From Cyanidioschyzon merolae (taxonomy: Eukaryota): a stretch of DNA of 64,000 nucleotides. Positions 7,367 to 63,960 of the stretch are shown piece after piece. Location: assembly GCA_000091205.1 (NCBI GenBank), contig AP006496.2; one strand, given 5' to 3'. The notes below the pieces were generated by a model. It saw only the letters and a list, made by a program, of their open reading frames with translations. It was not told where the DNA came from and made no database searches. A program made the position numbers and the translations under genes. Numbering within the stretch: position 1 is the first letter of the stretch; each line of letters begins with the position of its first letter.

Positions 7367-8461
7367 TCATGCTGCCGAGGTATCCGACGGGTCCAGGGTC
7401 CACGAGGTGCCTCCGGATACCACCGCCTGTTCCCGCGTTCGCGTACTTTGCACCGAGTCATTGCCATCGGGCAAAGAATCTGGTGACGTGCTTCGTTCAC
7501 AATTGACCTGTGAACCTGTCGCATTCAAGCACGCGACCTCTGCCCGAGACGCAGCTGGCGAACGTTTGCGTTGGGGAAGCACCTCGTTCAGCGCCTGGGA
7601 CCACGACTGACCTGCAGCCACTCGAGCGAGTGCCTCGAACGCATGGCAAGTAGTGAGCACCGGAGAGCCTCGCCACGAAGGTAACAGCTCCAGCGGGAGA
7701 CGGCGAGCTGGCAATCCCAGTGTCTGCGCTCGCTCGAGCATCAGTCCTTTCAGGCGGTTGCGATCTACGATGCCGCCCAGGATGTAGAGCGTATTCGGTT
7801 CTACCTGCATGAGCGTCTGCGTTGCATCGGCTGTAAGAACCACTGCGTCGATAGCACCAGCGGTTTCAGCGAGATACGAGGCCAAGTCGCTGCTGGTCCA
7901 GGTGATGCTGGGCCAACGCAGTGCCTCTTCACCGAAGACCTGGCTCCGGATATCAAGCGCTCGCGTATCTAGTCCGCAAATCGTCACTTGGAAGGTACAT
8001 ATGTGTTCCTGTTTCCGCAACAGGGCTTCACGTACGAGTCGTCTGTTCACAACGTACATTTGACGAAGTTGGATGATGCTCTTGCGCAGTTCTTTGGAGG
8101 TGAGCAATGCGCTCGCTCCCAGATCAACGATGCAGTGAAAGCGTCGAGATATTTGCTGAGAATGTGTGCATTGGAGATAGTCTCGTATCAGGCGTTCGAG
8201 ACCTCTTGTTGAGGCATCTGTTACATGAGTTTCACCAGATTGTCGTTCGCCTGTTGTGTCGAGTCCCGCGAGCGTCTGTGAGGTCTCCAGTTGACGCCGC
8301 TGACGCCTCCGCTGCTTCGCTGCTGTTCGGCGCTCCGCTCGCCTCGCAAGGTACAGCTCGTGTCGAAGACGACGCTTTCTTGCTTTCTTTGACTCTGGTA
8401 TTGAGGCTGAAGGTGTCCGATCCGATTCGAGGTCCGGAACACGAGCCCCTGGAACTGACAT
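7367..8461 (-). CDS. TRM10: tRNA (guanine9-N1)-methyltransferase Trm10/TRMT10 (SPOUT family)
   Basis: The segment VVLTADATQTLMQVEPNTLYILGGIVDRNRLKGLMLERAQTLGLPARRLPLELLP...VLTTCHAFEAL...LPQRKRS matches the Trm10 SPOUT core (IYLTSDSPN...YVIGGLVDHNHHKGL...AQLPL...VLAVNHVFEII...LPQRKG). Basic N-terminal extension. Confidence 0.85.
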   Translation of the reverse strand: MSVPGARVPDLESDRTPSASIPESKKARKRRLRHELYLARRAERRTAAKQRRRQRRQLETSQTLAGLDTTGERQSGETHVTDASTRGLERLIRDYLQCTHSQQISRRFHCIVDLGASALLTSKELRKSIIQLRQMYVVNRRLVREALLRKQEHICTFQVTICGLDTRALDIRSQVFGEEALRWPSITWTSSDLASYLAETAGAIDAVVLTADATQTLMQVEPNTLYILGGIVDRNRLKGLMLERAQTLGLPARRLPLELLPSWRGSPVLTTCHAFEALARVAAGQSWSQALNEVLPQRKRSPAASRAEVACLNATGSQVNCERSTSPDSLPDGNDSVQSTRTREQAVVSGGTSWTLDPSDTSAA

Positions 8462-9485: not shown

Positions 9486-9730
9486 TCTATGCACCATTGT
9501 AGCCGATGCTTGATTATAACCTTGCAGCTTCGTTGCATGCCATGCACTCTGCTCTCTGTGATTCGTGTTTATGTACGTACCTTGTCGGTGCTTGATTCTA
9601 AGCTTGCATCTCCGTCGCAAGCAAGTTCCTTTTGCATTCTACGATTCCTGTTTATGCACTATTGCAGCCGGTGCGCGGTGATGCGCTCTGCACCCTTGTC
9701 GGAATGCACTGGGGCAGGTTCCCGAACACT
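9486..9730 (+). repeat. Imperfect tandem triplication of a unit of about 82 bp, immediately 5' of repeat family 1 copy 1
   Basis: Recurring blocks: gtctatgcaccattgtagccgatgcttgatt, gtttatgtacgtaccttgtcggtgcttgatt and gtttatgcactattgcagccggtgcgcggtgatg. Confidence 0.45.
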
Positions 9731-9794
9731 GGTGTACTCGTTGAAAATTGGGTCTCTTCCACTATCGATAACAGCAGCTGCTGCACGCTTTTTC

Positions 9795-10580
9795 TGTGAC
9801 TGCATCCTTTTCGACACCCTGATCCTCATTAGACCGGTCTCTGCTCACTCTCGCAGTCCTTTGACAAAAGTCGCCGGACGTTGTTGGCAGTGTTTGCGTC
9901 CCGATTTCAATGTGTTCGGCTATTGTCGACATAATCCACATACAGGCGAACGTTGCAAGCTACGCCTCGCTTGTCATTTTCATCTTCGATGCGTAGAGCA
10001 TCGGTGCACAGGGCGCAGCGATGATTCCTAACGACGATCAACTGCTCCCGTTCACCCATCACAAATTCCTCTTCCCGTTCCATGTCTTCTGGAGCATGAA
10101 CGCTTGTTTCTTCGCTCGGCGCATGCCGCTGACGCCTACGCAGGGTGCACCTCCGACGCCCATACCTTCGTTTCCGCGCCCGGCGCCGTACCCTACGATT
10201 CCAGGCCTCGTCTGGGCAATCCCTCGGGCGGGGACGCTGTCCGCTAGATGCACAGGCGCACGCTTCTCCACTCGATACGTAATTCGTGGAACGGGGTGTT
10301 GTCTGTGGAGAAACACGTGCCACAAGGCGAATCGACGCCGGGGAACAAGGCGCGGAATTGCGATCTGTCTACGCTCGCCTCGTGCAAGGCGCAGTCGCAC
10401 GCTGAAACGGAAGCGATCACTGTGATGACTCAACTGCGAATCAATGATCAGTCTGATGAAGTTGCTGTGGAATTCTGCTTTGCGAGATGCGTTGACTAGA
10501 AGGCGATTTGTCTTTTGAACGGAATCGATAATGTGCTGGGAAAATCCCAATCAACTTTCGGATTGAGCTTATGAACAGGC
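9795..10580 (+). repeat. Interspersed repeat family 1, copy 1 (about 785 bp core, with a degenerate extension of about 50 bp upstream to roughly 9745)
   Basis: More than 99% identical to 15155..15940. ORF-track proteins of 138, 134, 163 and 83 aa are duplicated with only single-residue differences (D/G, R/W, R/Q, P/L). Boundaries read from the sequence: gtgactgcatcc... to ...ggattgagcttatgaacagg. Confidence 0.9.
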
Positions 10581-11525
10581 CATCAAACGACGACGACGTG
10601 TTCTTTGACGCACCCGCCTGTCCAGTAGTGCGACTTGTTGCGCACACGACTTGCCGTGATAGATTGAAACGTTGAAGCATGCGTGAATCGCGCACGCTAC
10701 TCCTAAAGCAAGCAGCAGACTGGAACCTTGTTCTGTGAACAAAACAATACTATCGCTTATATTCCGAAATAGAGGTCGAGGGCATCGCGAATCACCTTGA
10801 TTCCGGTGAAATAACGAGTTCGAGGAGCAGCGCTTCGAAGGTGCCTTCGCGAAAAGACGTCCGGGATTCCTAACATCTCACGTGCGCTCCCATAAGCCTT
10901 CTGCTGCTCCACGTTCACATTTCGTCAATACATCTAAAATCAATTCAGAACAAAGTCTCAGTGCTCGAATCGATTGAGCATTTCCGCGTTACGCTTTCCC
11001 CAAGCGCCACTGCAGGCCAACGAGCGCTGCTGTGCCGTACGAGCCCGCAGCGTCGACAGCGGCGACGGTGTCGGGGCGCCCGACAACGCTGGCACTCGCC
11101 CCTTGCATCGGTATGCAAAGCGTACCTCAAGCAACGTCTACTTCGCATAGGTGCACTGCACTTGGGTTTTTGTAGCTTGCTGGATCTAGTTATTCCAGAG
11201 TAGCGCAGCGTGCGGCTGTTTGAGCGCGTTCCAGGCTTGGCAGCGTTCCGCGAAGCCCGAAGCAGAACGTCGCTAGTGGACGACGCGGCTGCGGCAGAGG
11301 CAGGTGCAGGCGCCCGGCGGAAAGCACACCAGTGTAGCAGCTATTGTGTGCGCTTACCCAGGTGAGTGCTGGTTGAGGTTTTAGGTTTGAGTGCGTCGGC
11401 TAGGTGCTCAGAGCATAACCTCTGAGACGCGAACGCGTAAGCGCCAGCTGCACGTGGAAACAGGGGACGTCTGCGGACAGCAGCCTGTGGCATTGCTTCC
11501 GTAGCCTAGGCCGGAGCCACATAGT

Positions 11526-14231
11526 ATGGTGAATATAGTTTGTAGGAGGGGTTTGCTGGGGCAACTTGCTCGGTCTGGAGCAGCACTTTTGCACACGGTA
11601 GACGTGGGGGCCGGATCGTCACGGCGCGTTGCTGTTCGCACTGTGGTTGATTGGAGTCCAGCTGTACAGCAGGCGCGTCTGCCGTTGGAAGCAAACGCTC
11701 AGAGCTCGGTACAAGTTGCAGATGAGCGCCATTTGAGGCTTTTCGACACGTGCCGAAGAACTTGCGAGCGGTGGAGCTCCAGTCAAAGCGGCACGAGCGT
11801 CACTGGTAACGACTTGGCCGGCGTCTCGCTTCGAGTGTTTCCACGAAGGCATCGTGCTGCCAGCACGGCGACGCGCAAGTGTGCCGTGGTAGACGCTGCC
11901 GGCCTCAGAGCGCTGCTGCAGGCGAAACCTAAGCCGCCACTGCTCACCCTGGACTGGACGGAGCGGGTAGCGCGAGGGAGGTCGACGTCAACGCTCGCAG
12001 AGCGCTGGCGTTGCAGCTGGCGGGCGCGACCTCGCATTGAAAAGGCACCCCAGCGATGTCAAAGCACGTCGCCATCACCATCCTCGTCTTCGTCCTCGTC
12101 CTCGTCCTCGTCCTCGTCGTCGTCATCGTCGTCGTCGTCTGCTGCAGGCACAACCGGGGGTTCGTCGCGTCTCTTTACCAATCGATTACGAGGGCGCTCA
12201 CAATACCTAGGAGAGCGACTTCACAGAGCATTGCATAGGGTACGCTCTTGGTTAGCACAGCTTCCAGCACGCACGCTGAAGACCATCGAGTCGTTCGCAA
12301 AGCGGCTCTGGAGAGAGGTCGTGGCCTGCATTCGCCAGCCATCACGCCTTGTCATGCATTATCGTCACGCAAAGCAGACGATAACCGACTTTATTCATCA
12401 TTTCTGGACTGGTACCAAGCTGCTTGCGGCAGATGCTCGCTTGTCCTGGCGCATCATCAAACGCTTGGCGCAAGGCAAACAGCTCACTCGTCGAGAGCGC
12501 AACATTCTGATCGGGACCGGCAGTGATCTAGCGCGTTTGGTTCCATTTTCTTTCTTTATTATTGTTCCTTTTATGGAGTTTGCCCTGCCGTTGGCGTTGA
12601 AACTCTTCCCAAATATGATTCCCTCTCATTTTCAAGACAAGAAAAAGAAGGAAGAGGATATGAAACGCCAGCTCAAGGCGCGTATTGAACTCGCCAAGTA
12701 CTTGCAAGATGTCGTAGAGGCACAGGCGCTGATGATTCGTAACCAAGCTTCAGCCGGTGATGATGTTCGCAAACTGGCGAGTGAGCTTTCCGAGTTTCTG
12801 CAGAAGCTCCGCGAAGGTCATCCAGTGGATAAGTGGGATGTGCTGCGCTTCGCACGGCTTTTCAAGGATGAGATCACGCTTGAGAACGCCACTCGGGAAC
12901 AGCTCGTGGCCATGTGTCGATACATGGGCATTGCTCCGCACGGCAGTGACAGCTTTCTGCGCTATCGTTTACGGGCCAAGCTCGCGTCCATCAAGAACGA
13001 CGACATGCTCATTGCGTGGGAAGGCGGAGTCAAGAGCCTCACCGATGACGAGGTCACACAGGCGTGCCGCGATCGCGGTATCCGAACCGAGGGCCTGCCC
13101 ATTGAGCACCAGCGACAAATGCTTGCCGAATGGATTGAAATGTCGCAGAATCGCGAGATCCCCGGATCGCTCATGATCCTATCACGCGCATTCTTCTACA
13201 CCATGGATCCCGACAAGGCACTGGAGGCGACGCTCACTTCGCTACCGCATGAACTCGTGCAAGGCATGCAGTCCTCGGCTGAGGCGGCGGATGACGCCAT
13301 CGAAGGTGTTGGTACATCTGAAACTGGAGCCGAACACCGGAGTGAATCGGAGCGGCGTCTAGCTGAGGTACGACGCCACGAACGCCTCATGGAGCTTGAG
13401 GAGCAAAACGCTGCGGAGCAGGCAGCAGCAGCAGCAGCAGCAGCTGCTGCTGCTTCAGCGAAGCCAACAACGGATCACGAGTCCGAGGCGGCTGCGGTGA
13501 CGTTGCCAGCTAGCGCCGCTCCCGAGGCAGCTGCGATCGAACGCATACGCGAAGCAGAGCTTGTGCCGCCAAGTCCACGTGAAAGCAGCGTTGCTGCCGC
13601 GTCTGCAGTCGAAACCGAGGCTGTCAAGGCTGGCACCGGGCCCGCCACCTCCTCGGACAAGCTTCTGGACCGGCACCTGGCCGAGCTCAATGTTGCTGAT
13701 CGGAAAGAGGCGGTGGCAATGATCAGCACTGCATTGGAAGAAATGCTGCATCCGATCGTATCAAAAGAGCGGCAGGAAATAGAACAGTTGAAAATGGAGC
13801 TCGCCCAAGCTGTTGCGAACAGCGCCGGACCCAATGCCGCTACGACAGCTGAAATAGAACGCTTGAAGCGCTTCATCGCGCGCCTGGAGGAGGAATGCAC
13901 GCTCGTAGAGCAAAAGGTGGGCGACGCGCTCAAGCTTCTCGACCGGGATAACGACGGCTTCATCTCCGTGAAGGAGATCGCCGATGCGATTGCTGAGCTG
14001 CGCTATGGTCAACCGCTCACTGCGGGCCGAAGTGCAGCGGGCATTCGACCGCCAGGCCTAGAGAGCCGAGTCGACCCCGACTCTGTCGCTGCCGAAGTGC
14101 TCCGCCGGCTTGACCTGGACGCCGATGGTATCATTCAGCCGGACGATATTCGCCGACTGGCAGCTCAGGTTGCTGCGGAGCGACTTGGTCATAGACAAGC
14201 TGCTTCAGCAGCTGCATCGAAGAGCGAATGA
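11526..14231 (+). CDS. LETM1: LETM1/Mdm38-family mitochondrial inner-membrane ion exchanger with C-terminal EF-hand motifs. Contains poly-Ser (about 21) and poly-Ala runs.
   Basis: LTRRERNILIGTGSDLARLVPFSFFIIVPFMEFALPLALKLFPNMIPSHF...LAKYLQD...FARLFKDEITLENATREQLVAMCRYMGI...FLRYRLRAKLASIKNDDMLIAWEGGVKSLTDDEVTQACRDRGIRTEGL...IPGSLMILSRAFFY aligns well with human LETM1. EF-hand loops DRDNDGFISVKE and DLDADGIIQPDD. Putative spliced 5' UTR signal (CAG|GTGAGT) at about 11358. Confidence 0.88.
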   Translation: MVNIVCRRGLLGQLARSGAALLHTVDVGAGSSRRVAVRTVVDWSPAVQQARLPLEANAQSSVQVADERHLRLFDTCRRTCERWSSSQSGTSVTGNDLAGVSLRVFPRRHRAASTATRKCAVVDAAGLRALLQAKPKPPLLTLDWTERVARGRSTSTLAERWRCSWRARPRIEKAPQRCQSTSPSPSSSSSSSSSSSSSSSSSSSSAAGTTGGSSRLFTNRLRGRSQYLGERLHRALHRVRSWLAQLPARTLKTIESFAKRLWREVVACIRQPSRLVMHYRHAKQTITDFIHHFWTGTKLLAADARLSWRIIKRLAQGKQLTRRERNILIGTGSDLARLVPFSFFIIVPFMEFALPLALKLFPNMIPSHFQDKKKKEEDMKRQLKARIELAKYLQDVVEAQALMIRNQASAGDDVRKLASELSEFLQKLREGHPVDKWDVLRFARLFKDEITLENATREQLVAMCRYMGIAPHGSDSFLRYRLRAKLASIKNDDMLIAWEGGVKSLTDDEVTQACRDRGIRTEGLPIEHQRQMLAEWIEMSQNREIPGSLMILSRAFFYTMDPDKALEATLTSLPHELVQGMQSSAEAADDAIEGVGTSETGAEHRSESERRLAEVRRHERLMELEEQNAAEQAAAAAAAAAAASAKPTTDHESEAAAVTLPASAAPEAAAIERIREAELVPPSPRESSVAAASAVETEAVKAGTGPATSSDKLLDRHLAELNVADRKEAVAMISTALEEMLHPIVSKERQEIEQLKMELAQAVANSAGPNAATTAEIERLKRFIARLEEECTLVEQKVGDALKLLDRDNDGFISVKEIADAIAELRYGQPLTAGRSAAGIRPPGLESRVDPDSVAAEVLRRLDLDADGIIQPDDIRRLAAQVAAERLGHRQAASAAASKSE
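12076..12141 (+). repeat. (TCC/TCG/TCA-type CGT) trinucleotide microsatellite encoding a run of about 21 Ser inside LETM1
   Basis: catcctcgtcttcgtcctcgtcctcgtcctcgtcgtcgtcatcgtcgtcgtcgtc read directly. Confidence 0.9.
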
Positions 14232-15154
14232 GTAAACGACCACGTTCAAATCTGAGGACGGCTGCTCAACCGCCACTGCGTTCACTCCAGGGCCAGAGTG
14301 CTGCCCATTGTCGCTGGCAGTGTGCTAGAATTCGTCGCGACCAGAGCCGTGCACGCGGCAGCCAACGTTGTGGCTGCTCCAGGACGGCAAGTGTGCGTTC
14401 CGCACTGCGCTGGTTAGCTCGAATCGACCGTCCAAGTGCGTCAACCAGGCGGGTGCAGTTCTGGTGAAGGGTCCTCTGGAGGTGCTCCCAGGCCTCTTCT
14501 CGACGCCTTCCCCCGTTCATGCGTAGCGGCAGTGCACAGCGCCACGCCTGTATCGGTGCTGGTGGCAAGTGTGCACGTCCAGTGCACCGGACGCGCAGGG
14601 CAAACCGACGCTGCGGTGGAGGCGCGTGCTGTGTGCCGCCACGCAAGTGTGCCAGCGATACCCAGGTACCGTATTACATGCAAGTAGGAAGAGCGTTCCT
14701 GCGGGGTGAGGGGAAAAGCACACGACGAGACAATGTGTGCAAGGTGAGCAGTCACTTGGTCTGTCCCAGAGCGGTGATCGCGGCAATGTATCTAGCGCCT
14801 GAAGAAGCGCCTGCGACAAGCACCACTCGCTCCGGATTGCCAGATGGATCGTGCCTCTGCTTATGTTGCGAATCCTGATCAGAGGCTCAATGGATATTGT
14901 AGTGTCTGGAGTGATAGAGCGAGGTATGCAGGCCTCTTTCCCGGTTACCGGGAGCGTTCGGCGGACCTCGATGCATCTGGTTCATTCCGTTGACTGTGCA
15001 TTGCGGGGAACAACGGACGCCTTACGCTGGGCGCACTACCACATACATGGCGGAACGAAATGGAGGAGGTGTCACCTGGCGACCTCGAGTGGGCACACTA
15101 ACTTTTGGGTCTCTCTTTGAAAGGTCATCAACATCAGCGATGACGTGCTCGTAC

Positions 15155-15940
15155 TGTGACTGCATCGTTTTCGACACCCTGATCCTCATTAGACCGGTCT
15201 CTGCTCACTCTCGCAGTCCTTTGACAAAAGTCGCCGGACGTTGTTGGCAGTGTTTGCGTCCCGATTTCAATGTGTTCGGCTATTGTCGACATAATCCACA
15301 TACAGGCGAACGTTGCAAGCTACGCCTCGCTTGCCATTTTCATCTTCGATGCGTAGAGCATCGGTGCACAGGGCGCAGCGATGATTCCTAACGACGATCA
15401 ACTGCTCCCGTTCACCCATCACAAATTCCTCTTCCCGTTCCATGTCTTCTGGAGCATGAACGCTTGTTTCTTCGCTCGGCGCATGCCGCTGACGCCTACG
15501 CAGGGTGCACCTCCGACGCCCATACCTTCGTTTCCGCGCCCGGCGCCGTACCCTACGATTCCAGGCCTCGTCTGGGCAATCCCTCGGGCGGGGACGCTGT
15601 CCGCTAGATGCACAGGCGCACGCTTCTCCACTCGATACGTAATTCGTGGAACGGGGTGTTGTCTGTGGAGAAACACGTGCCACAAGGCGAATCGACGCTG
15701 GGGAACAAGGCGCGGAATTGCGATCTGTCTACGCTCGCCTCGTGCAAGGCGCAGTCGCACGCTGAAACGGAAGCGATCACTGTGATGACTCAACTGCGAA
15801 TCAATGATCAGTCTGATGAAGTTGCTGTGGAATTCTGCTTTGCGAGATGCGTTGACTAGAAGGCGATTTGTCTTTTGAACGGAATCGATAATGTGCTGGG
15901 AAAATCCCAATCAATTTTCGGAATGAGCTTATGAACAGGC
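15155..15940 (+). repeat. Interspersed repeat family 1, copy 2 (direct orientation relative to copy 1)
   Basis: See copy 1. Together the two copies bracket LETM1 at nearly symmetrical distances (946 and 924 bp). Confidence 0.9.
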
Positions 15941-16027
15941 GCCCAAGAGAGAACACCCCATGATTTCGTCATCCAATCGGCGGCGCGCATTGCTGCACCC
16001 AATACTTGCTGTGCGTAGGTCGAAAGC

Positions 16028-16243
16028 TTGACGCATCCGCGATGTGTGCTTGCTGCTTATAAAGAAATGAAACGCGTGGACGCTTTACGTATGATTTACA
16101 TAATGATATCGTCTATTTTGCGACCATTGCCCAAGATTGTCGCGATTGAGAATGATTTCGGTTTTAACGAGTTCCAGGAACAGCGCGTCAATGGAGCCAC
16201 TTCCAAACTTCGACCAAGAATCCTAGAACGACCTGGGAAATGA
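16028..16243 (+). repeat. Degenerate ~200-bp AT-richer element (family 3), copy upstream of fibrillarin. Candidate shared upstream/UTR element or decayed short interspersed element.
   Basis: About 65-70% nucleotide similarity to 29486..29704. Shared blocks: ataatgatatcg, ttgcga, gtcgygatt, gatttcggt and agaatcctaraac. Both copies lie 270-460 bp upstream of a + strand gene in the same orientation. Confidence 0.4.
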
Positions 16244-16702
16244 CGAGCCGTCGCTGCTGCTCGCTAAGCAACGATGCTGTACATCAGAGGGATACTTTGG
16301 AAATAAGTCTCGAGCCTGGACTAGAGCGTACAGTTCAGTGCCCCATGTTCATCGGACACGGTATAGCGTCGCCAGGAAGACGCGGCTATGCGCCCGTTGC
16401 AACGCAACAGCAGCGATTGCGTTTCGAGGGTGTCGCCGCATCGGCGCTGGGCGGCGGCGGCGGCGGCGTCGACGACACATGCGTGCACTACGCACGGATA
16501 TCCGTGCATGTCGCGGATACGTGTACGAGGACACTTGCGTGCGTGCATGCGTACTTGCGTCTGAAACTGCCACGAGTTTCACTCAACTTTTTATCTTTGG
16601 ACCTGCTAACCAATTTGGAAACGCTTTCAATCCTCACATTCTACGTCCACGCGTGCTGTCTCGGGCGTGATCTGTGACGATCACCGGTGTTTGGAAGGTT
16701 CC

Positions 16703-17773
16703 ATGGAGCGCGACAGCCGCCGTGGTTACGGCCGGGGCGCTTTCTCTCGCGGTGGTAGTTACAGTCGAGGCGCAGGTCGTCGCGGTGGTGGGAATAGTGG
16801 TGCTGGTGGTGGTGGTGGTGGCGGCGGATCTTTTGGTGGACTGGCACCGCGGGGCGGTGGAGGATTCAAGCCCGGTGCGAACGCTCGTCGTGAAGGTGGT
16901 GGTCCAGGCAGGGGACGCGGCGGCGGCGGCGGCGGCGGCGGCGGCAGCTGGCGAGGCGGCGCCAGTCGAGGCCGCGCTAGTCGAGGACGTGGCGGGTCTG
17001 CAGGTCGTGGCGCCCCGGGTCGCTCGTTGAGAGGTGGATCACGGGTTCTTGTTGAGCCGCACCGTCTCCCGGGTGTCTTCATCGTTCGCGGTAAAGAGGA
17101 TGCGCTTTGCACGAGAAACCTGATTCCCGGCGACACGGTTTACGGTGAGAAACGCGTGTCCGTTGAGGCCGTCGATCCGAACACCGACGAAAAGCGCAAG
17201 ATCGAGTACCGAATATGGAACCCGTTCCGGTCCAAGATGGCGGCGGCGATTCTCGGTGGCATTGAGCGCTTCCCCATCGGGCCCGGTACCAAAGTGCTTT
17301 ACCTGGGCGCAGCGAGCGGAACCACCGTATCACATGTTTCGGACATTGTAGGCGCCAGCGGGGTTGTTTACGCAGTCGAATTCTCGCACCGGTCGGGGCG
17401 GGAGCTGGTAGCGCTGGCACAGCGTCGGCCCAATATTGTTCCCATTGTCGAAGATGCCCGCTACCCAGCGAGATACCGCATGCTGGTGCCCATGGTGGAC
17501 ACCATCTTCGCCGATGTCGCGCAACCGGATCAGTCTCGTATCCTAGCCATGAATGCAGCGTACTTTCTTAGAACCGGAGGATACTTTATGATTTCGATCA
17601 AGGCAAGTTGCATTGACAGTACAGCGGCACCCGCCGCCGTCTTCGCGAGCGAGGTAGAAAACCTCCAGAAAGAGCGATTTCGACCGCTTGAGCAGTTGAC
17701 CTTAGAGCCGTACGAACGAGATCATGCGGTGGTCATCGGCACGTACCGCGTACCACCGAAAAGCAAACCGTAA
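16703..17773 (+). CDS. FBL: Fibrillarin (Nop1), box C/D snoRNP rRNA 2'-O-methyltransferase, with an N-terminal Gly/Arg-rich (GAR) domain
   Basis: The RGG/GGRGG-rich N-terminus is encoded by (GGT)n/(GGC)n tracts. The methyltransferase core [20 protein letters not shown]...[59 protein letters not shown]...[24 protein letters not shown]...[18 protein letters not shown] is near-identical to canonical fibrillarin. I chose the second in-frame ATG ([12 protein letters not shown]) over the first ATG at 16667. Confidence 0.9.
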
Positions 17774-27519: not shown

Positions 27520-29485
27520 GAATAGGTTACCCTGGTATCAACGGACGCGTCCAAGGAGGCCTATGGCGTCACAGAGCTTCCCCAGAGGCAGCGTTTCTCC
27601 CCCCGTGGAAGCAACCCGAACAGACGCGAGTCCGTGCCGCTCCGACTCGTTTCGCGCCATGGATCGAGCGCTCGCATGTGAGGCATCGATGGCTGGGAAT
27701 GAATAGGGAGGATATTGTATTTGATTGTATAATGGTGGACTCTGAGGACAGTGCATGCATGATCGCGAACGGCAGCGGCACATGCGCACGCATTCGCGTT
27801 CCTTGAATGAAGTTCGAGGATGGAGGAGCTCGTACGGCACCACAACGTTGTTTTGTCTGGCGTACAGCAAGTATGGCTGTGGCGCAGTTGTCGTTGTGGC
27901 GGGCCCGCTGCTCTACGGATCGGTGGATAATGCGAACGGCCAGTCTTGGTGGGAAGGCTGCTCTGTCTTCAGGGGAGCTCCGAAGCGTCGGGAGCTGAAC
28001 GAAGATCGCTCTCGCTGACTGCGGATACAAACTGATTAGAACAAGTTCGGAACGAGTACACTGTGCAAACAAGGACGTACACCCAAAGGTTTTCGTGTAT
28101 TCCTACTGTCGCCAGCAGAAGACCTTGCGGGCGTTTTCTACGACTGCTCCTTTTCTGTCTCTGTGATCTCGGGGTTTCAAATCGCTGGGCACTCCTTTCG
28201 TTCCAGCCTTCTTGGTTACAGTCGAAGGACGTTAATGACAGCGGTTGTGTACTGATTTCGTTGTTCCAGGATGTCGCGGGCGCAGGTAATTCCCATCGTT
28301 TTCGGACGCAGCCTTTGTGCGCACGCCGCAGTGGTTGCGCTTCACTGTGGTAAAGCGTTCCCGGATGCGCGCTGCATTTTCTCCTCCGAGGGCCGAGGCC
28401 TGCCCTGTGGCGCGTCAAGGCAGGCTTTATCGCTCGGTACACGCCCTTGGTGGATGCAGAAGGCACGGTTCGATGCCCTGCTCCGTTGCCGTGCCCGCTG
28501 CCTTACCCGATCATCGTGGGCTTCTTCTGGGCGATATCCTCGGCGAGTACGCTGTCCTCTAGATGCACAGGCGTGCGCTAATCAGCTCAATAGCTCAACA
28601 TCCGCTTCCTAGCGCGCCTTTTGTTTTCTGCAGACGCCGCCCAGAAAACTTGTCGATGGGCGCAACACGCCTCAAGATACGTAAGCCAGTCTTCGGTATT
28701 GTATCCACGTGTACAAGTCGACTGCGATAATTCAGCCGCAGCTTTTGGTACATTCGTCTGTTTCGCTCGCAGGCTTATCGGAATATGCTTTCAATTCGCA
28801 CACTCTGCTGAGACGAAGATAAGAGGCGTGCGAGTAGAAGCTACCGCTGTGGCGGGAAGGCGCAGGGCTCGAACCTCGTGCCTCCAGAGCATCGGCGATA
28901 ACCACAGGGAGGTTGCAATGCGCTTTGGGGCTCACGGAAAGCGCAAGTGTTGAGGTTCGCGCTCCGTGGGTCCAGGCTGATGCAGATCGCATTGGGGAGC
29001 ACCTTCTCGCGGCCATGCATCGGTGTTGATCGTTGTTCCGCCGCGTAAGACCTCAGATATTGAGCAGGGCTTGGTTTGAGCGCTGACGATGGTGTGAAGC
29101 ATGTGTATGACGTTCGAAGTTGAAGTTGAAGTTGATGATGATGATGATGATGCTGGATGCGCGAACGCTGTCAGTCTCGTTGAAAGTCACCATGTGTTTT
29201 CGTCGTGGAGCAAACCTTGCTTTCCACCTCTCTTCCTTCACAATCACATTTATCGATCACGAGAGAGGTATCATGATGCTGTCGAATGCACTCGCATCGA
29301 TGCCAGAGACGCAGGAGTTTGTGCACCGAACGGAATCGAGCATTTGGCGTGCGAAGTTTTAGTGAACGCGCCGCATAAATATGGAATAAATTCGTCAAGG
29401 TTCGAGCTCGCTTATTCTCCCTCGTCAATAATGCGGCACGAAAAGCCTGTCTCATGAGATACCTTGAATCAGGGAGATCGAAAAC

Positions 29486-29704
29486 GTGAAGCGTGCGAGA
29501 TTCGAGCTCGCCATACGTAACAAAGGAGCAGCATGGAGGCTTGAACGCCTATATTGGATAATGATATCGGTGATGTTGCGAACTCTGGTTCGGGACGTCG
29601 TGATTCATCTTGATTTCGGTGTCGCAAAGCATACCAGTAGCAGAGCGCTGGGAAAGCCTCCGAAATCACGCCCGAGAATCCTAAAACCACGTTTGAATCT
29701 GTAA
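29486..29704 (+). repeat. Family 3 degenerate element, second copy, upstream of the BRAWNIN-like small ORF
   Basis: See 16028..16243. Confidence 0.4.
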
Positions 29705-29977
29705 GTGCTCATTGCTGCGTTGGGAGTGTCGAGACAGTGCATCGAAAGCAAGTTCAAAAAACTATTCTCAATCCAGGAGCAAAGCGAGCAGTTTAATGCT
29801 CTATTTTCATGTCAATCGGGTGCAGCGCTCACGCAGCAGGAGCATTACGATACCCGGCGCATCGATGCCGTTGTGAAGGAGAGAAGAACCTTGCACAAAC
29901 TTGGATGGCGTATGCGCATCCAACAATTCATGAGCTCCTTCGCTCCCGCATGCCGTAAACTGTTGCCGTCGACGGGT

Positions 29978-30184
29978 ATGCCCGGTGTCGGCTGGCGAGA
30001 GTACGTGATCCTCTACGGTGCTGCGTTCAGTTCGCTTCTTGCGGGAGCTTCTCTTGTGCATAACTGGTTGCGCCCAGACTTGACCCTGCCGAACCTGGCG
30101 GCAACAGTGACCCGAGACGCTGCTGGAGCCGTCAAGCGGACGCGGGCCCAGGAACCTCGGGCTGACACAAACGTGACGCCGTGA
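29978..30184 (+). CDS. Small (68 aa) single-pass membrane protein resembling BRAWNIN/UQCC6 (C12orf73-like respiratory complex III assembly factor)
   Basis: The internal ATG of ORF 29705..30184 gives MPGVGWREYVILYGAAFSSLLAGASLVHNWLRPDLTLPNL... The pattern MP.GV..Y......A.SLLAG...VH...RPDLT.P matches the N-terminal TM segment of BRAWNIN recalled from memory. Assignment rests on one short motif. Confidence 0.45.
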   Translation: MPGVGWREYVILYGAAFSSLLAGASLVHNWLRPDLTLPNLAATVTRDAAGAVKRTRAQEPRADTNVTP

Positions 30185-33100
30185 GGTGCGTCTCCCAGCG
30201 ACAGCGACCGGCGTGAGGGATTCAAGCTGTCACCAGGTCGTGTGCGAAAACAAGTTCTCGAAACAAGCGGAGGTCTAGCGTTCGGTTTTGGGCGCGGAAA
30301 CTATGTGTTTCGGCATGCGCCCAACTGTATTCAGGACTAGCGAAGGACGAAACATTAGAATCGTTCATGAATCGCCGAGGTGAATCGCGTTCGATGAACG
30401 TGGAGAGTGGTCTGGACTTTGCGGACTGCTGAACCGTATCATACTCGTGCTTTGGTACCAGCCGGACTCCAATGCATGCTCTCTTGGCCACTGGTTTTCT
30501 ATCAGAAATATTCTTCGTTTCAGTACCATACCCCCGCTGGGCACGAAACGATATCCCGGAACGGACTTTCGACATAGAGCCGTTGGACGATATAAACCAC
30601 GAGATATTTCCGAACGTTGACTGAAGCGTTCAAGTCTCTGTTCAGTACGCGCTTCCGCGCATTGTCGCTGGTGGAATCACACCGCAGCAATGCGCTCATC
30701 TTCCATTACCTCGCCATCTGACACTCGGTTAACGTATCGTACAGCATCTCGTAGAACTGTCTCTGTTTCACGCTCTTCTTGTCTACCGGTTTCAGCGTGC
30801 ATGTGTCGAGATGACGCGTATGTCTCGTCCTGAACTGATTCGCGAGCATCGTACGGAATCGATTCCTGCGTTCGTTGCACGCTGCCGTCGAGAGAGCAGG
30901 ACTACAGCCCTTGCTCTGGAAAGCGAGCCCAGTGTCATCGGATACCCGAAGAACGACGCGACTTGTCGACCGTTTCCATTCTCAACGCATCCAACAAGTT
31001 GGCGAATGCATGGTTCTTGCTTCCGTAGAATAGAAACGACTGGCGACCTCAGCGCGCGGTCTGTTGTACCGTGTGCCAACCATCGATCGCATGAGCCGCT
31101 TGGACGCTGCTGTGCACTCAGCATGAAGTGTACAAAGCGTCCTGCTCTGCTCGATACGGTGCAGAGGGTGTGGTGACGGGTCCTGACGCAATCCATCCAT
31201 TTGCTGGTGTGCATTCTGATGTCTATGATGCCCGACGTGCGCTTATACCGAGCACTGGAAAAGTTTCGCAGATGCATTCACTTCCGATTGGGTCGTTGTC
31301 TCCGTCGTCTCGACTGACTGACACATCGACGGGCGTGACGTCCCTCATTCGGACGTCGACGACGACCAACAAATCTTTCTCTTGACCTGCCTTGGACGGT
31401 TGAAAATGAGTCTCATTGCGCGACTCTGAACCAGGTTTTGCAAAGTGCATGCAGATGGATGTTGCGGCGTCGTCCGTGCTCGAGACAGTTTTTCTCCACG
31501 CTCTACTGGTAAACGAGAATCCTTGAACGAGCTTCGCCAATGCGCCACGTCGCGTTGGTCGAATGCTGGTTGCTTGCACACAGAAACCAGCTATTGATCG
31601 CTGAAGAGGTCGTACATTACCGTGCACAATTGTCTTTGGTGATAGCATATGCCTTGGAATGACTGATCGCGATCATGACGTATAGACGCTAGAGGAGACA
31701 CCGATGCTGGGATTCGGGGAGCGAGTCTGCATTGGCCTGGACGGCACTGTTCCCGAAAACGCAGTAATGCGAGATGTATGCAAGGCAGGCATCACGTTTC
31801 CGTCACAATTTGGATATGACGTGGGTTGGTCCAAGGCCCAGAGAGCAACACGACAACCTTGGACGATCTGGAAGGACGCCTGCTCGTGTTGCGATATCTT
31901 TTGCGAGTGCGCCAGCGCTTCGAACGCGTATGTCACCAGCTCAACATATGCCTCCATCGACACCGCGAGTATCCCTTCTGTCAGTGTCCAATGATCCCGG
32001 CCAGTGAGATGAGTCTACTAGGGGTAAAAAGCCCACAGGGCGTGCCCCGTGAAGCGCTCCACATTGGCTCGCATATGCTTTTGGTTTTCAGAATGCTTCG
32101 ATACTTTGTCGCATCTATCCTGCGGTTAGGACGGTCACAGACGTGGCAACGCGACGCGACAAGGCATTCTGGCACGTGTGTGTTTTTTTTTGCGATCCCT
32201 GCTCCGACGATCACGCCATTCTGCATCCTCTGCCCGGGGTATATGTTGTGTCGTCGTACGAAGGTTTGATCGAAGAATTCCACAGGAGCGAGGACAACTG
32301 GCACCTATGCGTACGGATCTCGTGAGGAAACTTCCTCGACGAGGTGCGTCAAGACGTGCAAAGCGAGGTAAACCCTCGTCAACGGACAAACCGAGCGATC
32401 TCCAATAGCGTCCGGCATATCTTTTTGGAAGATTTGTCCTGGCGCTACGTCCTCGTAGAAAAGCTTTTACAACGGTTTCAGGTTGATCTCCCGGCTCGGA
32501 AAGTTTCTCGTTTCGGTACCTTCTCGTCCTCTTTTCGGGAGGATTTCTCCTTTTCATCCGATGACTCCTTCTCCATTTCGTTTCTTTCGCGATGTGGCAT
32601 GGATGCGATTGTTGTACTCCATACCTGGTTTCTGTCGGGATTCAGATGCGCTGGATTACGGGTGATACCAGGATCCGCATTCTCTATGTATGTATCTACT
32701 ATTCCTCAGATAACTTTTGGTGAACTTCTCCGTCGCGAGCTTCTCTGCAGGCCGACAAAGGCATTGCCACCACCCGATGCGCACGAACTGTAGCGTCACA
32801 GCGCAGTTGAGGGCCGGTCAAGGTAGAGAACTACCTGCCAAGCAGCAATTCATCGAAAACCTTTCGTTTCACGGATGCAAACGACTCGTCTAGCGTTTCA
32901 TGGCCGTAACTACGGTATCAAACAGCAGAGAAGACGCTTTCGTCTGGATTGAATCAGGGGAACACGACGACGCGAAGAGCAACAGAACACCAATCATAGC
33001 TGCGTACTCCTTTATTGCTTTGGTTGATCCAAAGCGAAGTTCTCTAATAGGTGGACAGAGGAATGCGGGAAGAGGAAGCTACGAAGAGTGCCAACACGAG

Positions 33101-34964
33101 GGTTAAGATGCTGAAGGATCCTGACCGTTTGGCGATGTTTGGGCGACCAGACCAGGGCGTCGCCGTATGGCTGACGTTGTCGTCATACTCGCTTCTCGCT
33201 TCTATGCGAGCACCAGCTTAGTCCTCTCTGCGCACTCGCATACAGATCTACCATTTCTCCCAAATAAAGCCTCATGAATGTAGGTGAACACCTGGCCCTC
33301 CAGTGCCAAGCGTTCGCATTTCACCAGGATATCGATCGTGCGTTATTCAACGCGTGACGCGTCTAGCGTAGAAATCTGTGTTGTTCTCGGTCCGATAGGG
33401 TGTCTTCATCACTGTCCGCAATAGCGGTCCGGATGCTTCACATCCTGTGGCTTCTTCTATAGTGCTTCCTGGGGAAATCAAGGCATGGATTGGATTGACG
33501 AGAACATAGTCGTTCAGATAGGGTTCGCCAGGTTCTGTCGTGGACGCAAAATGTTAATATTAGGGATCAGGAGAGCGGCGGCTCACCTAGCCGATGAACT
33601 ATGAACGACTGATTGATGAATGAGCGACCGTTTGAGGCATGCTAGCAGCGACAAAGTCAAGTCTTTATGGCACCTTCCTTCAATCTGCAGGTTACATTCT
33701 TTTTGTTGAATAGATACGAAAAAAATAAACAAAAATAAAAACAGGTGTGTGAGTACGGGTGTTCCAGAACCCACTGCTCAGAGTCTAACGTCTCCGGATT
33801 TCGCAGCAGAGCGCATGAGGTAGCGTGCACCCTCGGGCCCATTTCCTCGGTAACGATCATGACCTGAATAGGCGGCAAGCGTCGCAGAGCTTCGGTGCGC
33901 AGTGGCAGTGGGTCGCAAGCTCTGCGTTTACAGAGCATGCATCCAGCTTCAAAACGTTGAATGCCGGTCAGTTTTTCTGGATTTTCACCACGTCGCTCTC
34001 GCTTAACATAGACTGGAGGGAAGGAATTCGTCGACGTGGCGTACCGCGTGCACGACATAGCGTCAGCGGGGCTTTGCATTGCGCACTGCAGAGCCGGCTC
34101 TTCGGGCACCTATTTCGCTTCCACGAACTGCGTCATTCGTGCGACCGGGTTGGCGTCGAGGGCGCGCTCGCTTTCGAAACCCCATGGTTTCGAGCCGCTC
34201 GCGAGAAGCGACAGCTCGGTGAGCACACTCTAAAAGACCGCTGTTGCAACGAGACGGGTCGGTTTCCTTTGAAAACTTCACGGCACTGGGTCGTCAACAC
34301 GCGTACAGCCGGGGCTCTGGGTTACGGCACTGAGGTAAAACCTGTGACTTGCATATGGTCGACGTATTTGATCCCTGATCCAGATCCATAAAACTGTGTA
34401 ATCCAGGACGTAGTACTCCCGTTCCAGAAGAGCCCCGCAACTCCACTTTCAGAGAGCGATGCAACCAAACACCGCGCCGCTGCATACCGTTAACCTAGCA
34501 GGCTCCTTCGTTAACGAGGCACCAAAAAGGCAAAGACGAGCACCGCCACAGAGTCCCAGAGACTCTATGCAATATCTCTTGCCTCCAAGCGCAAGGCTAG
34601 GGGGGCTTGAGAACGCCCGAACAACGGCGTGCAGGGTCCATTGCCCCAGACAAACACGTGCCCGCAAAATCCGGTCCCAATAATAGACACAACGTGATAG
34701 CGTCAGTGCAATGTACAATGTATGGAGGCTTGAGTCCGCCAGTCGGAAACCGCATACATTGCCAGAAGAGCCTACGTGTTTCCGTGAGCAGTTGGTGCAC
34801 CGCCTGCGATACGAGGCGCGCCGATGCCCACTCGAAGCGCGCGCGCGCGCGCAGGCACGCCGCCTCGTCTGATAAGAGACTCTTCGTCGTCTGCCGCGGC
34901 TTTGTTGAGTGTTATTCTCCTGTACGCAGCTCTTGCTCCAGTGGGTACAGGCGCGACGCATACC

Positions 34965-35264
34965 ATGTCAGGTTCGCTATGGAAACAACTGCTTACGCGC
35001 GGTAGCTCCTGGATAGAACCTTCAGCGTCTCCCGAGGCGTGGGAAACGACAGCTGAACTTCGCAGGAAGCTTCTGTACACACACCTAAACGCTTTGCCAG
35101 CTCGTTGGCAGGCCGCACAGAACGAGTTCAGGGCGCTGCTGGACAAGATGCGCGCGAAGCAGGTCACCGTCGAAGAGGCCGGGTGGTTCGGCGTGCGCTG
35201 TGTTGAGCTGTATGCATTCTATTGTTTGGGGGTCGTGATCGGGGCGCGCTCCCTCCAGCCGTGA
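34965..35264 (+). CDS. Candidate mitochondrial F1Fo ATP synthase subunit g (ATP5MG/Atp20-like), about 99 aa
   Basis: The internal ATG of ORF 34824..35264 gives a protein ending ...KQVTVEEAGWFGVRCVELYAFYCLGVVIGARSLQP. This resembles the subunit-g C-terminus (human ...TVKEAVLNGLVATEVLMWFYVGEIIGKRGIIGY, yeast ...YSVGEIIGRRKLVGY) including the GxxIGxR motif. Size is appropriate. Confidence 0.45.
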   Translation: MSGSLWKQLLTRGSSWIEPSASPEAWETTAELRRKLLYTHLNALPARWQAAQNEFRALLDKMRAKQVTVEEAGWFGVRCVELYAFYCLGVVIGARSLQP

Positions 35265-35693: not shown

Positions 35694-36311
35694 TCACGCA
35701 TGTGCCATGCGCCTCCTTGGTGTTTTCGCACCGCCCGGTGTGCGCCTCTCTCGACTAGTGCTGCGCGCACGCTGCGGCCGTTGGAAACGTTTCCTGAGCC
35801 CCTGGTCCAGGCCGAGGAACGCCAGCACCTCCACGAAAACAAAGAGCGGTGCGCTCGCAAACGCCTGAATGAGGTTATCCAGCAGCGCCGGGCGACGTTT
35901 CTCCAGCCATTCATGAGCAGCAAACTGAGCAGACCACCCCAGCAACTGGATGACGAGAAACGCAGACCAAACGACCTGTGCGTCAGGGGCGCGAAGCAGA
36001 AGCGCTCTGCCCGCAAGGTACAGAGGCAGGACCATCACTAGCGCTGCACTTGCTCCCAGAAGCGGCGAAAGCACGATATAATACAGCGCATAGGCTACAG
36101 CGACTATCAGTCCGAGATCGAGCTTCACACCACCGAGCGAAACGCGCCACTGCGCTAGCGCTGCTAGCGCACTGCCAAGCAGCAACGGAACGAACACCAC
36201 GTGGACCAACTGATTGACAGGGTGCGCGTGATATTTTAGATAAAATCCATACTGTTCAGCAAAGTCAAGACTTAAGACTGCTGCTGTATGTCGCTTCCGC
36301 TCCCCCGTCAT
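35694..36311 (-). CDS. DUF962/Mpo1-family membrane protein (yeast YGL010W/Mpo1-like, Fe(II)-dependent 2-hydroxy fatty acid dioxygenase family)
   Basis: FYLKYHAHPVNQLVHVVFVPLLLGSAL (yeast FYKFYHHNPKNVLIHSIFVPTILFS) and WLEKRRPALLDNLIQAFASAPLFVFVEVLAFLGL (yeast FEKRRPALIDNLVQSLVLAPYFIMFEFLFKLG) match the family signatures. Confidence 0.85.
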   Translation of the reverse strand: MTGERKRHTAAVLSLDFAEQYGFYLKYHAHPVNQLVHVVFVPLLLGSALAALAQWRVSLGGVKLDLGLIVAVAYALYYIVLSPLLGASAALVMVLPLYLAGRALLLRAPDAQVVWSAFLVIQLLGWSAQFAAHEWLEKRRPALLDNLIQAFASAPLFVFVEVLAFLGLDQGLRKRFQRPQRARSTSRERRTPGGAKTPRRRMAHA

Positions 36312-36477: not shown

Positions 36478-36594
36478 GATGCATTGGCATTGGCATTGGC
36501 ATTGGCATTGGCATTGGCATTGACATTGGCATTGGCATTGGCATTGGCATTGGCATTGACATTGGCATTGGCATTGGCATTGGCATTGACATTC
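36478..36594. repeat. Hexanucleotide minisatellite (GCATTG)n of about 20 units, with GACATTG variants every 5-6 units
   Basis: gcattggcattggcattg...gacattggcattg read directly. Lies about 170 bp upstream of the Mpo1-like start codon. Confidence 0.95.
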
Positions 36595-36730: not shown

Positions 36731-37066
36731 CGCTGGAACAGATACTGCACGGAGACAGAACGGCTTTGCTATACCGCTGAGGGTATCGGGCTGAGGCGTG
36801 GTTGGCGCGATACCGGGTCGGAGTACACCGTAACTCTGGGATCGCTCGAGCAGAGACTGCACGGAGACAGAACGGCTTTGCTATACCGCTGAGGGTATCG
36901 GGCTGAGGCGTGGTTGCCGCGATACCGGGTCGGAGTACATCGTAACTCTGGGATCGCTCGAGCAGATACTGCACGGAGACAGAACGGCTTTGCTATACCG
37001 CTGAGGGTATCGGGCTGAGGCGTGGTTGCCGCGATACCGGGTCGGATTACACCGTAACTCTGGAAT
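36731..37066. repeat. Tandem array of a unit of about 113 bp, roughly 2.9 copies (unit begins ctgcacggagacagaacggctttgctataccgctgagggtatcgggctgaggcgtggttg...)
   Basis: Period measured between ctgcacgg occurrences at 36744, 36857 and 36969. Units differ by a few substitutions. Overlapping ORF-track proteins show the same repeated peptide in several frames, so the array is probably non-coding. Confidence 0.85.
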
Positions 37067-39039
37067 CCTGCAAGCTGTGCAGAGAGACGTACTGCGGTCG
37101 GTAGCACGTGGCGGCTTCGGTTTGTGTGCCTTGCTGAATGTTAGGTTCAGGATCTTTTGCAACGAGGTGGCGCATCTCGAGGTACGATCGATGCGCACCT
37201 GGTCCTGTCAATGTCACAAACCGCGAATCAGACTTTCGTCAAAGGTTAACAGTTCGCTGACGTGACCCTCAGGGTACCGGGCGTATAGTGTGCGCTCGCG
37301 GAGAGCGCCGCTGAGGATGCTGCGTTGATATACAGCAACTTCACCACGTCCAGGAGAACGTCGGCAGGGAGTCGAGATATTCGATGCGTCTGCTGCAACG
37401 TATGGCACATGACCCTGGATGAACAGCCGTGCATGTGCATCGCATGACTTCTGTGGGGTTTCTTGCGAGATACGTCGATCAGTTGGTCAGAGTCCGGGGC
37501 CACAGCTGTTTCTTCAGATCGATCACAAGTAAAGAATGAGTTCGGTAATACGTCGCCGCTCCGAGGGCGCGATATGCGCATGCCCTGAGTCACGGGGTAT
37601 GGCGGATCGGCGAGAACGTCAGTGCTGCTCGCTTGTACCCTACCAAGCGGAACAAATCGACACAAACGAGCTATTTTGTTGTCATGATACCTCGAAGATC
37701 CGGCAGACGGACCACGAACCTGAAGTGCAGTGTTTCTGCATATGCAACGCAAGAGCGCCAGCGCCGGGTTCCGTGTCCGGAAGATGTGCGCAGCCTCGTT
37801 GAACCCGAACCCAGGTTGTTTTGAGAGCGAACCCCAAGTTGATTTGCAGCAGCCGCAACGATCGTCGCATGCTTCTTGTTCGTTTCTGACCGACGTGACT
37901 GCATCCAGCGCGCGGAGATGAGCAAGTATTCAGGCCTGCCGAGCGTTCGAGGAAAATCCAGAGTCCTAAGCTGCATGGACAAAGCAACTGCATCTGCCAC
38001 GTAGCCACGGCACTGTAGCGTCAACAATTGCGATGCACCGGAGGCTTCTCCGCATGCAATCGCAGGGATCGTGAGCCTTGTTCGCTGCTGTATAGCAGGA
38101 ACTTGATTCAACTCGCAGTCGTGCAGCATCCATCGCATCTCCAAATGCTTTGTTCGCGAGACTTGCGGATATAACGCTCGCTGCGCAGCGTTCTTGAATA
38201 TGATCGCTGACGGCTTCATATGCGGAGCAAAAACCTGCTAGGCACATCTGGGCAAAATTACCGTGACGACGGCATCTCGGCGCCTCGAGCTCCGGATCCG
38301 ACGTACGCCGCTACGGTGCACATGCACGAGATCTCGCTCGCGAAAGTAGTGTGATCCTTTTTTCGTATCATTTGCCACCTAAAATAGCAGTTTGTGATCA
38401 GTCTCGGAGGTTCGGGTCAGATATGAGAGCACGTACACGCTCCGAATAGCACCGTTTCATTGCCTTGGGGATTCCAGCGTCCAGTGCTTCGCCTGGCGTG
38501 CGTCATTGCTGTGACGCTCGAACGCCCAGCGCACCGGCAGACGCACATCGCACCAGTGTGCCGAGCATTCGCGCTGATTCCGGAGACAGATTTATAAACG
38601 GAGCCTTTAAATCGAGTCAACAATCCCCAGTCCTAACTTTCATTGAACAGGCTCCATGCTGTACCTGGTTGTTCATGCAGTGTAAGCGCGTGCTCGAGCG
38701 AACGAGTCATGAAAAGGTCTGGCAGTCGAGCGCATGCCCGTACGCAACAGATGGTGTGCATATGACTCGATGCAGAGCGCACTCGAGCGCATGTCGAGCT
38801 GTGCCCAGCACGCTGTCTATCCCTGGATTCGCGAACGGTACGCTTGAATTACGATCCGTTCAGCTGCAAAAGGCACATACCTCGGACATCCGGTTCTCGA
38901 TAGAGATATCGCAAGCTGGAGATGGTTTGCATGGTGCCGGAGAATGAAATCCGTTCTTATCGCACAGGCATACACCGATGCGCCGTTTCTGCAACATAGC
39001 GTCATACCAGAAAGGCAAAAGCTTCGTGCACAGAGCAGA

Positions 39040-39232
39040 CAAACGACACTGATTGCGCTGCATCGTTGCTAAGAGTGATGCTATGCTATGCGGCGGTATA
39101 CGCCATGACCTGAGCATCTCGTGCGTTTTCTGAGGTATGCACCAAGCAAACAGACGGCACTGTTTGCGCTGCATCCTTACTAAGAGTGATGCTATGCTAT
39201 GCGGCGGTATACGCCATGACCTGATCATCTCT
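39040..39232. repeat. Tandem duplication of a unit of about 112 bp (2 copies)
   Basis: gctgcatcgttgctaagagtgatgctatgctatgcggcggtatacgccatgacctgagcatctc recurs as gctgcatccttactaagagtgatgctatgctatgcggcggtatacgccatgacctgatcatctc. Confidence 0.75.
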
Positions 39233-63780: not shown

Positions 63781-63960
63781 TACGACTGTTACTGCTACTG
63801 CTGCTACTGCCGCTACTGCTGCTACTGCTGCTACTGCTGCTACTGCCGCTACTGCTGCTACTGCCGCTACTGCTGCTACTGCCGCTACTGCTGCTACTGC
63901 CGCTACTGCTGCTACTGCCGCTACTGCTGCTACTGCTGCTACTGCTGCTACTGCTGCGTC
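63781..63960. repeat. Minisatellite with an 18-bp unit (gctactgctgctactgcc), about 9-10 units, at the window edge
   Basis: Read directly. It would encode Thr/Ala-rich (or Ser/Ala-rich on the opposite strand) low-complexity sequence if coding. Confidence 0.9.

Follow-up and report, generated by a model that had tools for sequence, protein, structure and literature searches.

The window examined here is a stretch of 64,000 nucleotides of Cyanidioschyzon merolae (GenBank assembly GCA_000091205.1, contig AP006496.2). It is part of chromosome 14 of strain 10D, as identified by exact protein matches to BAM81200, BAM81205, BAM81207, BAM81208 and BAM81209. A kinetoplastid origin with repeats of the Leishmania type, which the GC content and the intron-less ORFs might have suggested, was rejected because of the mixed strand order and the homologues of LETM1. 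A LETM1 gene in the window lies between two direct repeats, A and B, which are nearly identical over 787 bp. We consider A and B most probably to be anciently diverged members of a non-coding, lineage-specific repeat family whose central cores have been kept alike by ectopic gene conversion, with LETM1 as a bystander. Gene conversion at repeats is a known process; it is newly described in this genome, and the pair around LETM1 represents a new, well-documented instance.

The repeat pair and its mosaic identity

Self-BLAST aligns positions 9794–10580 of the window with 15154–15940 in direct orientation over 787 bp, with 99.365% identity, no gaps and five mismatches (in 10D at 9807, 9974, 10339, 10555 and 10563). 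The two 0.8 kb tracts of identity are 5.4 kb apart. The original prediction, made from the letters of the window, had described near-identical direct repeats of 785 bp; the pair is confirmed, with starts that were 1 bp off and a length of 787 bp instead of 785 bp. Its spacing of 946 bp upstream and 924 bp downstream of LETM1 is correct for the open reading frame (ORF) at 11526–14231, and its statement that no gag/pol lies between the repeats is also borne out. Public metagenome and SRA assemblies contain C. merolae-like contigs that are 98.3–99.5% identical to the window. The left junction of the B core is identical in four contigs of other strains (L002, L003, L016 and L017), two of which (L016 and L017), from independent samples, have both A and B with identical junctions assembled inside a single contig. 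The pair is thus not an artefact of the reference assembly.

The two cores are the central parts of units of about 1.3 kb, as found by nhmmer with either unit as the query, and the window contains four further units of the same family. The cores and units are as follows.

9794–10580, + strand: core of repeat A, upstream of LETM1, homogenised over 787 bp (self-BLAST, step-function identity profile)
15154–15940, + strand: core of repeat B, downstream of LETM1, homogenised over 787 bp (self-BLAST, identity profile)
9690–10990, + strand: family unit A, about 1.3 kb, consisting of the core and diverged left (104 bp) and right (about 410 bp) segments (nhmmer, profile hidden Markov model, HMM)
15040–16340, + strand: family unit B, about 1.3 kb (nhmmer, profile HMM; right-flank homology to A, z = 34)
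28038–29810, + strand: family unit C, diverged, with an insertion of about 520 bp (nhmmer matches in two pieces; alignment)
41071–42443, + strand: family unit D (self-BLAST, nhmmer, alignment)
44169–45408, − strand: family unit E, in inverted orientation to D (1273 bp, 99.5%) and in direct orientation to F (self-BLAST, nhmmer, identity profile)
49900–51152, − strand: family unit F, which with E brackets a RelA/SpoT gene at 46204–49125 on the − strand (self-BLAST, nhmmer, identity profile)

A and B match C, D, E and F with nhmmer E values of 1e-20 to 1e-62. A second set of repeats in the window (41171–42443, 44168–45440 and 49886–50962) forms one family with A/B (E values of 1e-55 to 1e-62). 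D, E and F are mutually 99.1–99.5% identical over 1077–1273 bp.

The identity between A and B is a step function. In 50-bp windows it lies at 40–60%, rises to 98–100% throughout the 787-bp core and falls to 42–74% beyond it. By segment, A–B identity is 56.7% over the left 104 bp, 99.4% over the core and 54.4% over about 400 bp on the right, and the values for A or B against C, D, E and F are 47–58% in the flank segments (left and right pooled) and 49–55% in the core. The homology between A and B extends to the right of the core (62% over 244 bp, 10630–10873 against 15985–16226, with z = 34 against shuffled sequences); the left-flank similarity of A and B is not significant by itself and aligns within the family. 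Since the A/B core aligns with the cores of C–F, it belongs to the unit rather than having been inserted into it. Outside the core A and B are no closer to each other than to the other four copies, which indicates that a sharply bounded central tract has been homogenised. Comparable steps are found in the second set: D–F and E–F share a tract of about 1.08 kb at 96–100% identity with 40–62% outside it, and D–E identity nowhere falls below 82% along the full aligned unit and is 98–100% over 1273 bp. As D, E and F show these steps independently, the process is not peculiar to LETM1.

The units show no sign of coding capacity. No reading frame is kept between subfamilies (tblastx between subfamilies), stops occur in all frames, and the substitutions have no codon periodicity (16 tests with p values of 0.05–0.99, one of them below 0.1). 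Terminal inverted repeats, poly(A) tracts and target-site duplications (TSDs) were not found consistently across copies. An arginine-rich frame at 9907–10323 on the − strand recurs as an ORF of 117–190 aa in 11 diverged family copies, with the consensus ...RSTNPLS..AC.C..S.QR...P.EARDRRVRHRARKR...SR.A.C.RQ.HVPS.EASVHAPQ. It has neither a codon-phase signal nor a Pfam match, and the recurrent 138-aa frame contains 3–5 stops in D/E/F. A protein-coding repeat was considered and rejected, with tblastx, codon-phase substitution counts and Pfam all empty; a structured RNA was likewise rejected, as there was no Rfam or tRNA match and the folding z was near 0. The folding energy of the core equals that of shuffled sequence on either strand (z = 0.36 and 0.07).

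Variation between strains and probable gene conversion

Wherever a C. merolae-like contig extends to the locus, the junctions of the repeats are unchanged, in strains that are 0.7–1.3% diverged. L016 (41.9 kb) and L017 (32.3 kb) span ATR, fibrillarin, B, LETM1, A, TRM10 and UTP20 unbroken. A and B differ at seven sites in the strain represented by L016 and at five in 10D. Three positions (10119, 10395 and 10476) behave in concert, with A and B being the same in 10D and the same in L016 while the two genomes differ; none of the metagenome copies has the base of the two 10D copies at 10119 or 10476. Two other positions, 9974 and 10563, are swapped, with the state of A in 10D being that of B in L016 and vice versa. 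All B copies have adenine at 9847 and cytosine at 9854; the wild A copies have thymine at 9847 without exception and, but for one (L030), adenine at 9854. The A copy of 10D has the B state at both positions, which indicates conversion from B to A. Positions at which both copies agree are immune to mis-phasing, and 9847, 9854 and 10563 are within 60 bp of a tract boundary and are thus anchored to the unique flanks.

Between 10D and L016, coding sequences diverge by 0.2–0.5%, intergenic regions by 0.3–1.1%, the A core by 1.02% and the B core by 1.27%. The cores thus diverge at or above the intergenic rate and are not constrained. The divergence between A and B within a genome (0.64% in 10D and 0.89% in L016) is smaller than that between orthologous cores of the two genomes. 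An unconstrained core, in which paralogues within a genome are closer than orthologues between genomes, is the signature of concerted evolution by ectopic conversion. Three defining features of non-allelic conversion are present at the locus: concerted sites, shared or swapped polymorphisms and a sharply bounded tract. The comparison between strains therefore supports the suggestion of the original prediction that ongoing gene conversion accounts for the high identity. C. merolae carries out homologous recombination very efficiently, including pop-out between direct repeats in 10D (PMC8504449, PMC13353863), and meiotic recombination has been reported in the genus (PMC13353863).

We infer that conversion is the mechanism and that no selected function maintains the identity. 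A and B would be two anciently diverged members of a lineage-specific, non-coding family of intergenic interspersed units of about 1.3 kb, and ectopic (non-allelic) gene conversion would have transferred the central 787-bp tract of one unit to the other. Continued exchange between the tracts since this founding event would have kept the cores about 99% identical. The ends of the units would be too diverged to pair and would stay at about 55% identity, thereby fixing the boundaries of the tract. LETM1 would be a bystander that happens to lie between two neighbouring units, and the A/B pair would represent a latent substrate for unequal crossing-over or loop-out.

Several points weigh against this reading. 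Short-read assembly may mis-phase interior sites between A and B in the metagenome copies, and the robust sites are only 10119 and 10476, where the copies agree, and 9847, 9854 and 10563 near the boundaries. The tract boundaries are the same in all strains examined, so that the founding event was single and old and the case for ongoing exchange is made by a handful of sites. The size of the family is a lower bound, with six units in the window and at least ten lineages elsewhere. Finally, the units measure 1.3 kb (1.8 kb in C), compared with a mean of 3.2 kb for the interspersed element of C. merolae to which the family probably corresponds (see below).

Alternative explanations

The original prediction regarded the repeats as substrates for homologous recombination, with loop-out deletion or circular amplification of LETM1 as the outcome. 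As a statement about the substrate this is plausible for a 787-bp direct repeat of 99.4% identity, and direct-repeat pop-out has been shown experimentally in C. merolae 10D (PMC8504449, PMC13353863). Two contigs have the arrangements that it predicts for the deletion and circle junctions. L023 (25 kb, JGI 3300009503) joins the left flank of A through one repeat to the right flank of B and lacks LETM1. L027 (3.9 kb, JGI 3300002182) runs from the 3′ part of LETM1 through the left flank of B and the repeat into the right flank of A, as would be expected of a circle or tandem-duplication junction. These arrangements are also exactly the two paths, bypass and cycle, that arise in a de Bruijn graph when a direct repeat with two copies is collapsed. 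Of the other contigs that span a complete repeat and reach both flanks, about 12 have the arrangement normal for A and four that normal for B, many contigs break at the repeat, and LETM1 is a single-copy and probably important gene. L023 and L027 are more likely to be assembly artefacts than products of non-allelic homologous recombination (NAHR) and are treated as leads, not as evidence.

Structural variation at LETM1 is thus plausible but undemonstrated, and we regard it as unlikely that A/B mediates real copy-number variation of the gene in nature, whether by loop-out deletion, as an extrachromosomal circle or by tandem duplication. The chance is similarly small that A/B and E/F recombine in natural populations to give chromosomes without LETM1, LETM1 circles or tandem duplications. 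If they did, the dispersed family would constitute a built-in copy-number-variation system for single genes in a highly streamlined eukaryotic genome. The original prediction had also described the findings that would speak against it. Part of these were found, namely a dispersed repeat (six units in the window and at least ten lineages elsewhere) and the lack of TSDs.

A single recent duplicative paste of the 787-bp segment, by segmental duplication or template switch and with no later exchange, would explain the identity of the cores by their youth. The absence of indels at 99.4% identity and the equal boundaries in all strains would fit such an event, which we nevertheless judge improbable. 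Both copies are common to strains whose orthologous cores differ by 1.0–1.3%, more than A and B differ within a genome, and they therefore predate the split of these strains, contrary to the very recent origin proposed in the original prediction. Positions 10119 and 10476 have changed in both copies together, and 9974 and 10563 are swapped between strains. In addition, a homologous, diverged unit was already present in register at the target, which implies replacement, as in conversion, rather than insertion. The present data already point, albeit weakly, to clustering of the A and B cores by genome or to mosaics. A recent segmental duplication, the other form in which this origin had been suggested, does not agree with the identity of A and B outside the core (54–57%), where they are as diverged from each other as from other members of the family.

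That the identity is maintained by purifying selection, acting on a functional element that flanks LETM1 on either side (a regulatory module, a promoter or a non-coding RNA), is very improbable. Such selection would not make the identity drop from 99% to 55% within a single unit, and the divergence of the core between strains (1.0–1.3%) is at or above the intergenic rate, with no Rfam match and no excess folding stability. Short conserved blocks are kept in the family at an overall identity of about 50%, and the interspersed elements of Nozaki et al. have been reported to be transcribed (PMC1955436), both of which would be in keeping with a function. In A, B and F, moreover, a gene of the same orientation lies with its 5′ end towards the 3′ end of the unit, a pattern with n = 3 only.

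The idea that A and B are long terminal repeats (LTRs) or other terminal repeats of a composite mobile element carrying LETM1 (LARD/TRIM-like or a composite transposon) can practically be dismissed, although the repeats are direct, have the same orientation around one gene and have a core that starts with TG: the core ends in ...AACAGGC and not in CA, neither the pair nor single copies have a TSD (5′ flank of A, GCTTTTTC; 3′ flank of B, GCCCAAGA), there is no primer-binding site next to A and no polypurine tract before B, the ends of the units outside the core are only about 55% identical, and LTR retrotransposons have not been found in C. merolae (PMC1955436). The interior is moreover LETM1 in an ancestral gene order that is shared with Cyanidiococcus loci lacking the repeats. 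The LTR-like element offered in the original prediction is contradicted by these same features.

The repeat family, neighbouring genes and known systems

A profile HMM built from the six units detected no seventh copy in the 64-kb window. The 138-aa ORF of A (9907–10323, − strand) matched ten further clusters (50% identity clustering) at 33–52% identity in an exhaustive HMMER search, and none of the ten maps to the window at high identity. Two of these were followed to their contigs, which each carry a family unit with an nhmmer E value of about 1e-117 at an unrelated locus, one next to a helicase-C gene (L034) and the other adjoining an ORF with AlkB/desaturase-type histidine boxes (L035), which shows that the family is dispersed beyond the window. 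The 173-aa ORF of D/E/F as a query matched only its own cluster, and a tblastx comparison of the whole window yielded nothing above noise in the way of additional repeats at the protein level. When metagenomes were scanned with a conserved 22-mer, loci A, B and C were the only ones recovered, and the scan is uninformative on other members of the family. The intergenic regions hosting the units span 2.4–9.9 kb.

The architecture around LETM1 recurs at E and F, which are direct repeats (1077 bp, 99.1%) around the gene for the RelA/SpoT homologue BAM81207 (46204–49125, − strand), with an orientation relative to the gene that also matches. This gene may be CMN082C (CmRSH4b), also on chromosome 14. 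The CMN gene identifiers obtained from the literature, CMN082C and CMN075C, are too few to tie the units to annotated 'X' features. D (41171–42443, + strand) and E (44168–45440, − strand) form an inverted pair (1273 bp, 99.5%) whose 3′ ends face a 1.7-kb spacer, and recombination between them would invert this spacer. The insertion in unit C (within 28594–29272) holds short (GAAGTT)n and (GAT)n runs. Unit C is the only feature identified in a 7.3-kb region (27520–34823) that, in an otherwise gene-dense genome, has no ORF longer than about 160 aa and has a lower GC content (0.51–0.54); this region adjoins the small genes for ATP synthase subunit g (34824–35264) and an Mpo1-like protein (35694–36311). 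Four tandem repeats in the window are unrelated to the unit family: 36731–37067 (112 bp × 3, 96% matches), 39027–39231 (111 bp × 1.8), 36481–36593 [(GCATTG) × 19] and 63792–63957 [(CTGCTACTG) × 18].

LETM1 and its two neighbours are as follows.

11526–14231, + strand: LETM1 gene, 901-aa ORF with Pfam LETM1_RBD (E = 1.3e-76) and EF-hands
7367–8461, − strand: TRM10-type tRNA m1G methyltransferase, left neighbour, BAM81200 (Pfam; exact 10D protein match)
16718–17773, + strand: fibrillarin, right neighbour (Pfam Fibrillarin, E = 8e-103; 351-aa gene calls in other strains)

The order TRM10–LETM1–fibrillarin is ancestral and common to Cyanidiococcus loci without repeats. With the six-unit profile, no family unit was found in the syntenic loci of Cyanidiococcus and a related metagenomic lineage (L005 and L006), in which both intergenic regions are shorter by about 1.1–1.6 kb. 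The true start of LETM1 is uncertain. Homologues cover only the last 71% or so of the ORF, the conserved part beginning near 12327 (634 aa), and most gene calls in related strains (634 or 623 aa) also begin near this position, although a call of 898 aa occurs as well. The N-terminal extension of 267 aa (11526–12326) is covered by no homologue and contains a (TCCTCG)n poly-serine run at 12081–12136. Neither the 901-aa nor the 634-aa version is exactly equal to a 10D protein in the database.

C. merolae 10D, a model for gene targeting, has been promoted as having the simplest genome of any free-living eukaryote. To our knowledge, its one abundant repeat class has hardly been studied since 2007. 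The findings leave current views on repeats or recombination unchanged, and their significance is mainly practical. Ectopic exchange would form near-identical patches of 0.8–1.3 kb that lie a few kilobases apart, which matters for the design of homology arms, and short-read assemblies break at or mis-join across the A/B locus, which matters for their interpretation. Such patches offer a natural substrate on which the genes between them (LETM1 and the RSH gene) could be deleted or duplicated. The locus is also a compact and tractable place in which to measure the rates of ectopic conversion and NAHR in a red alga with a known sexual cycle.

The family is probably the interspersed element of C. 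merolae 10D described by Nozaki et al. (2007), which has 253 copies with a mean length of 3.2 kb and makes up about 5% of the genome (PMC1955436). That element is transcribed and has a truncated ORF with weak similarity to WSV486 of white spot syndrome virus (PMC1955436); the recurrent arginine-rich frame of the units may correspond to this truncated ORF. The identification is based on dispersion, intergenic multi-copy placement and decayed ORFs: in the same organism, both the element and the units are dispersed, intergenic and multi-copy and have only truncated or decayed ORFs. They differ in the number of copies, six and at least ten more having been seen here compared with 253. The 2007 paper gives no account of gene conversion or of the bracketing of genes (PMC1955436).

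Low-copy repeats that undergo non-allelic conversion and NAHR, such as human CMT1A-REP around PMP22 and yeast Ty/delta, resemble A/B in that direct repeats flank a single-copy gene. They have in common concerted evolution, shared polymorphisms and sharp tracts, and the predicted products are reciprocal deletion and duplication. A/B differ from repeats of the CMT1A-REP type in being far smaller in scale and in being fragments of an older dispersed family, not a duplicated segment.

Leishmania amplifies genes extrachromosomally through direct and inverted repeats. The window resembles this system in that dispersed intergenic repeats bracket genes in direct (A/B and E/F) or inverted (D/E) orientation in an organism proficient in homologous recombination. 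Unlike in Leishmania, no amplicons were observed, and there are three such pairs in 64 kb.

A parallel in the same strain is the engineered pop-out of markers (Takemura, 2018, as cited in PMC8504449; PMC13353863), in which intrachromosomal homologous recombination between two direct copies of less than a kilobase excises the gene between them. The engineered events are selected with 5-fluoroorotic acid (5-FOA) or 5-fluorodeoxyuridine (5-FdU), whereas A/B is a natural pair and the gene that it encloses is probably needed.

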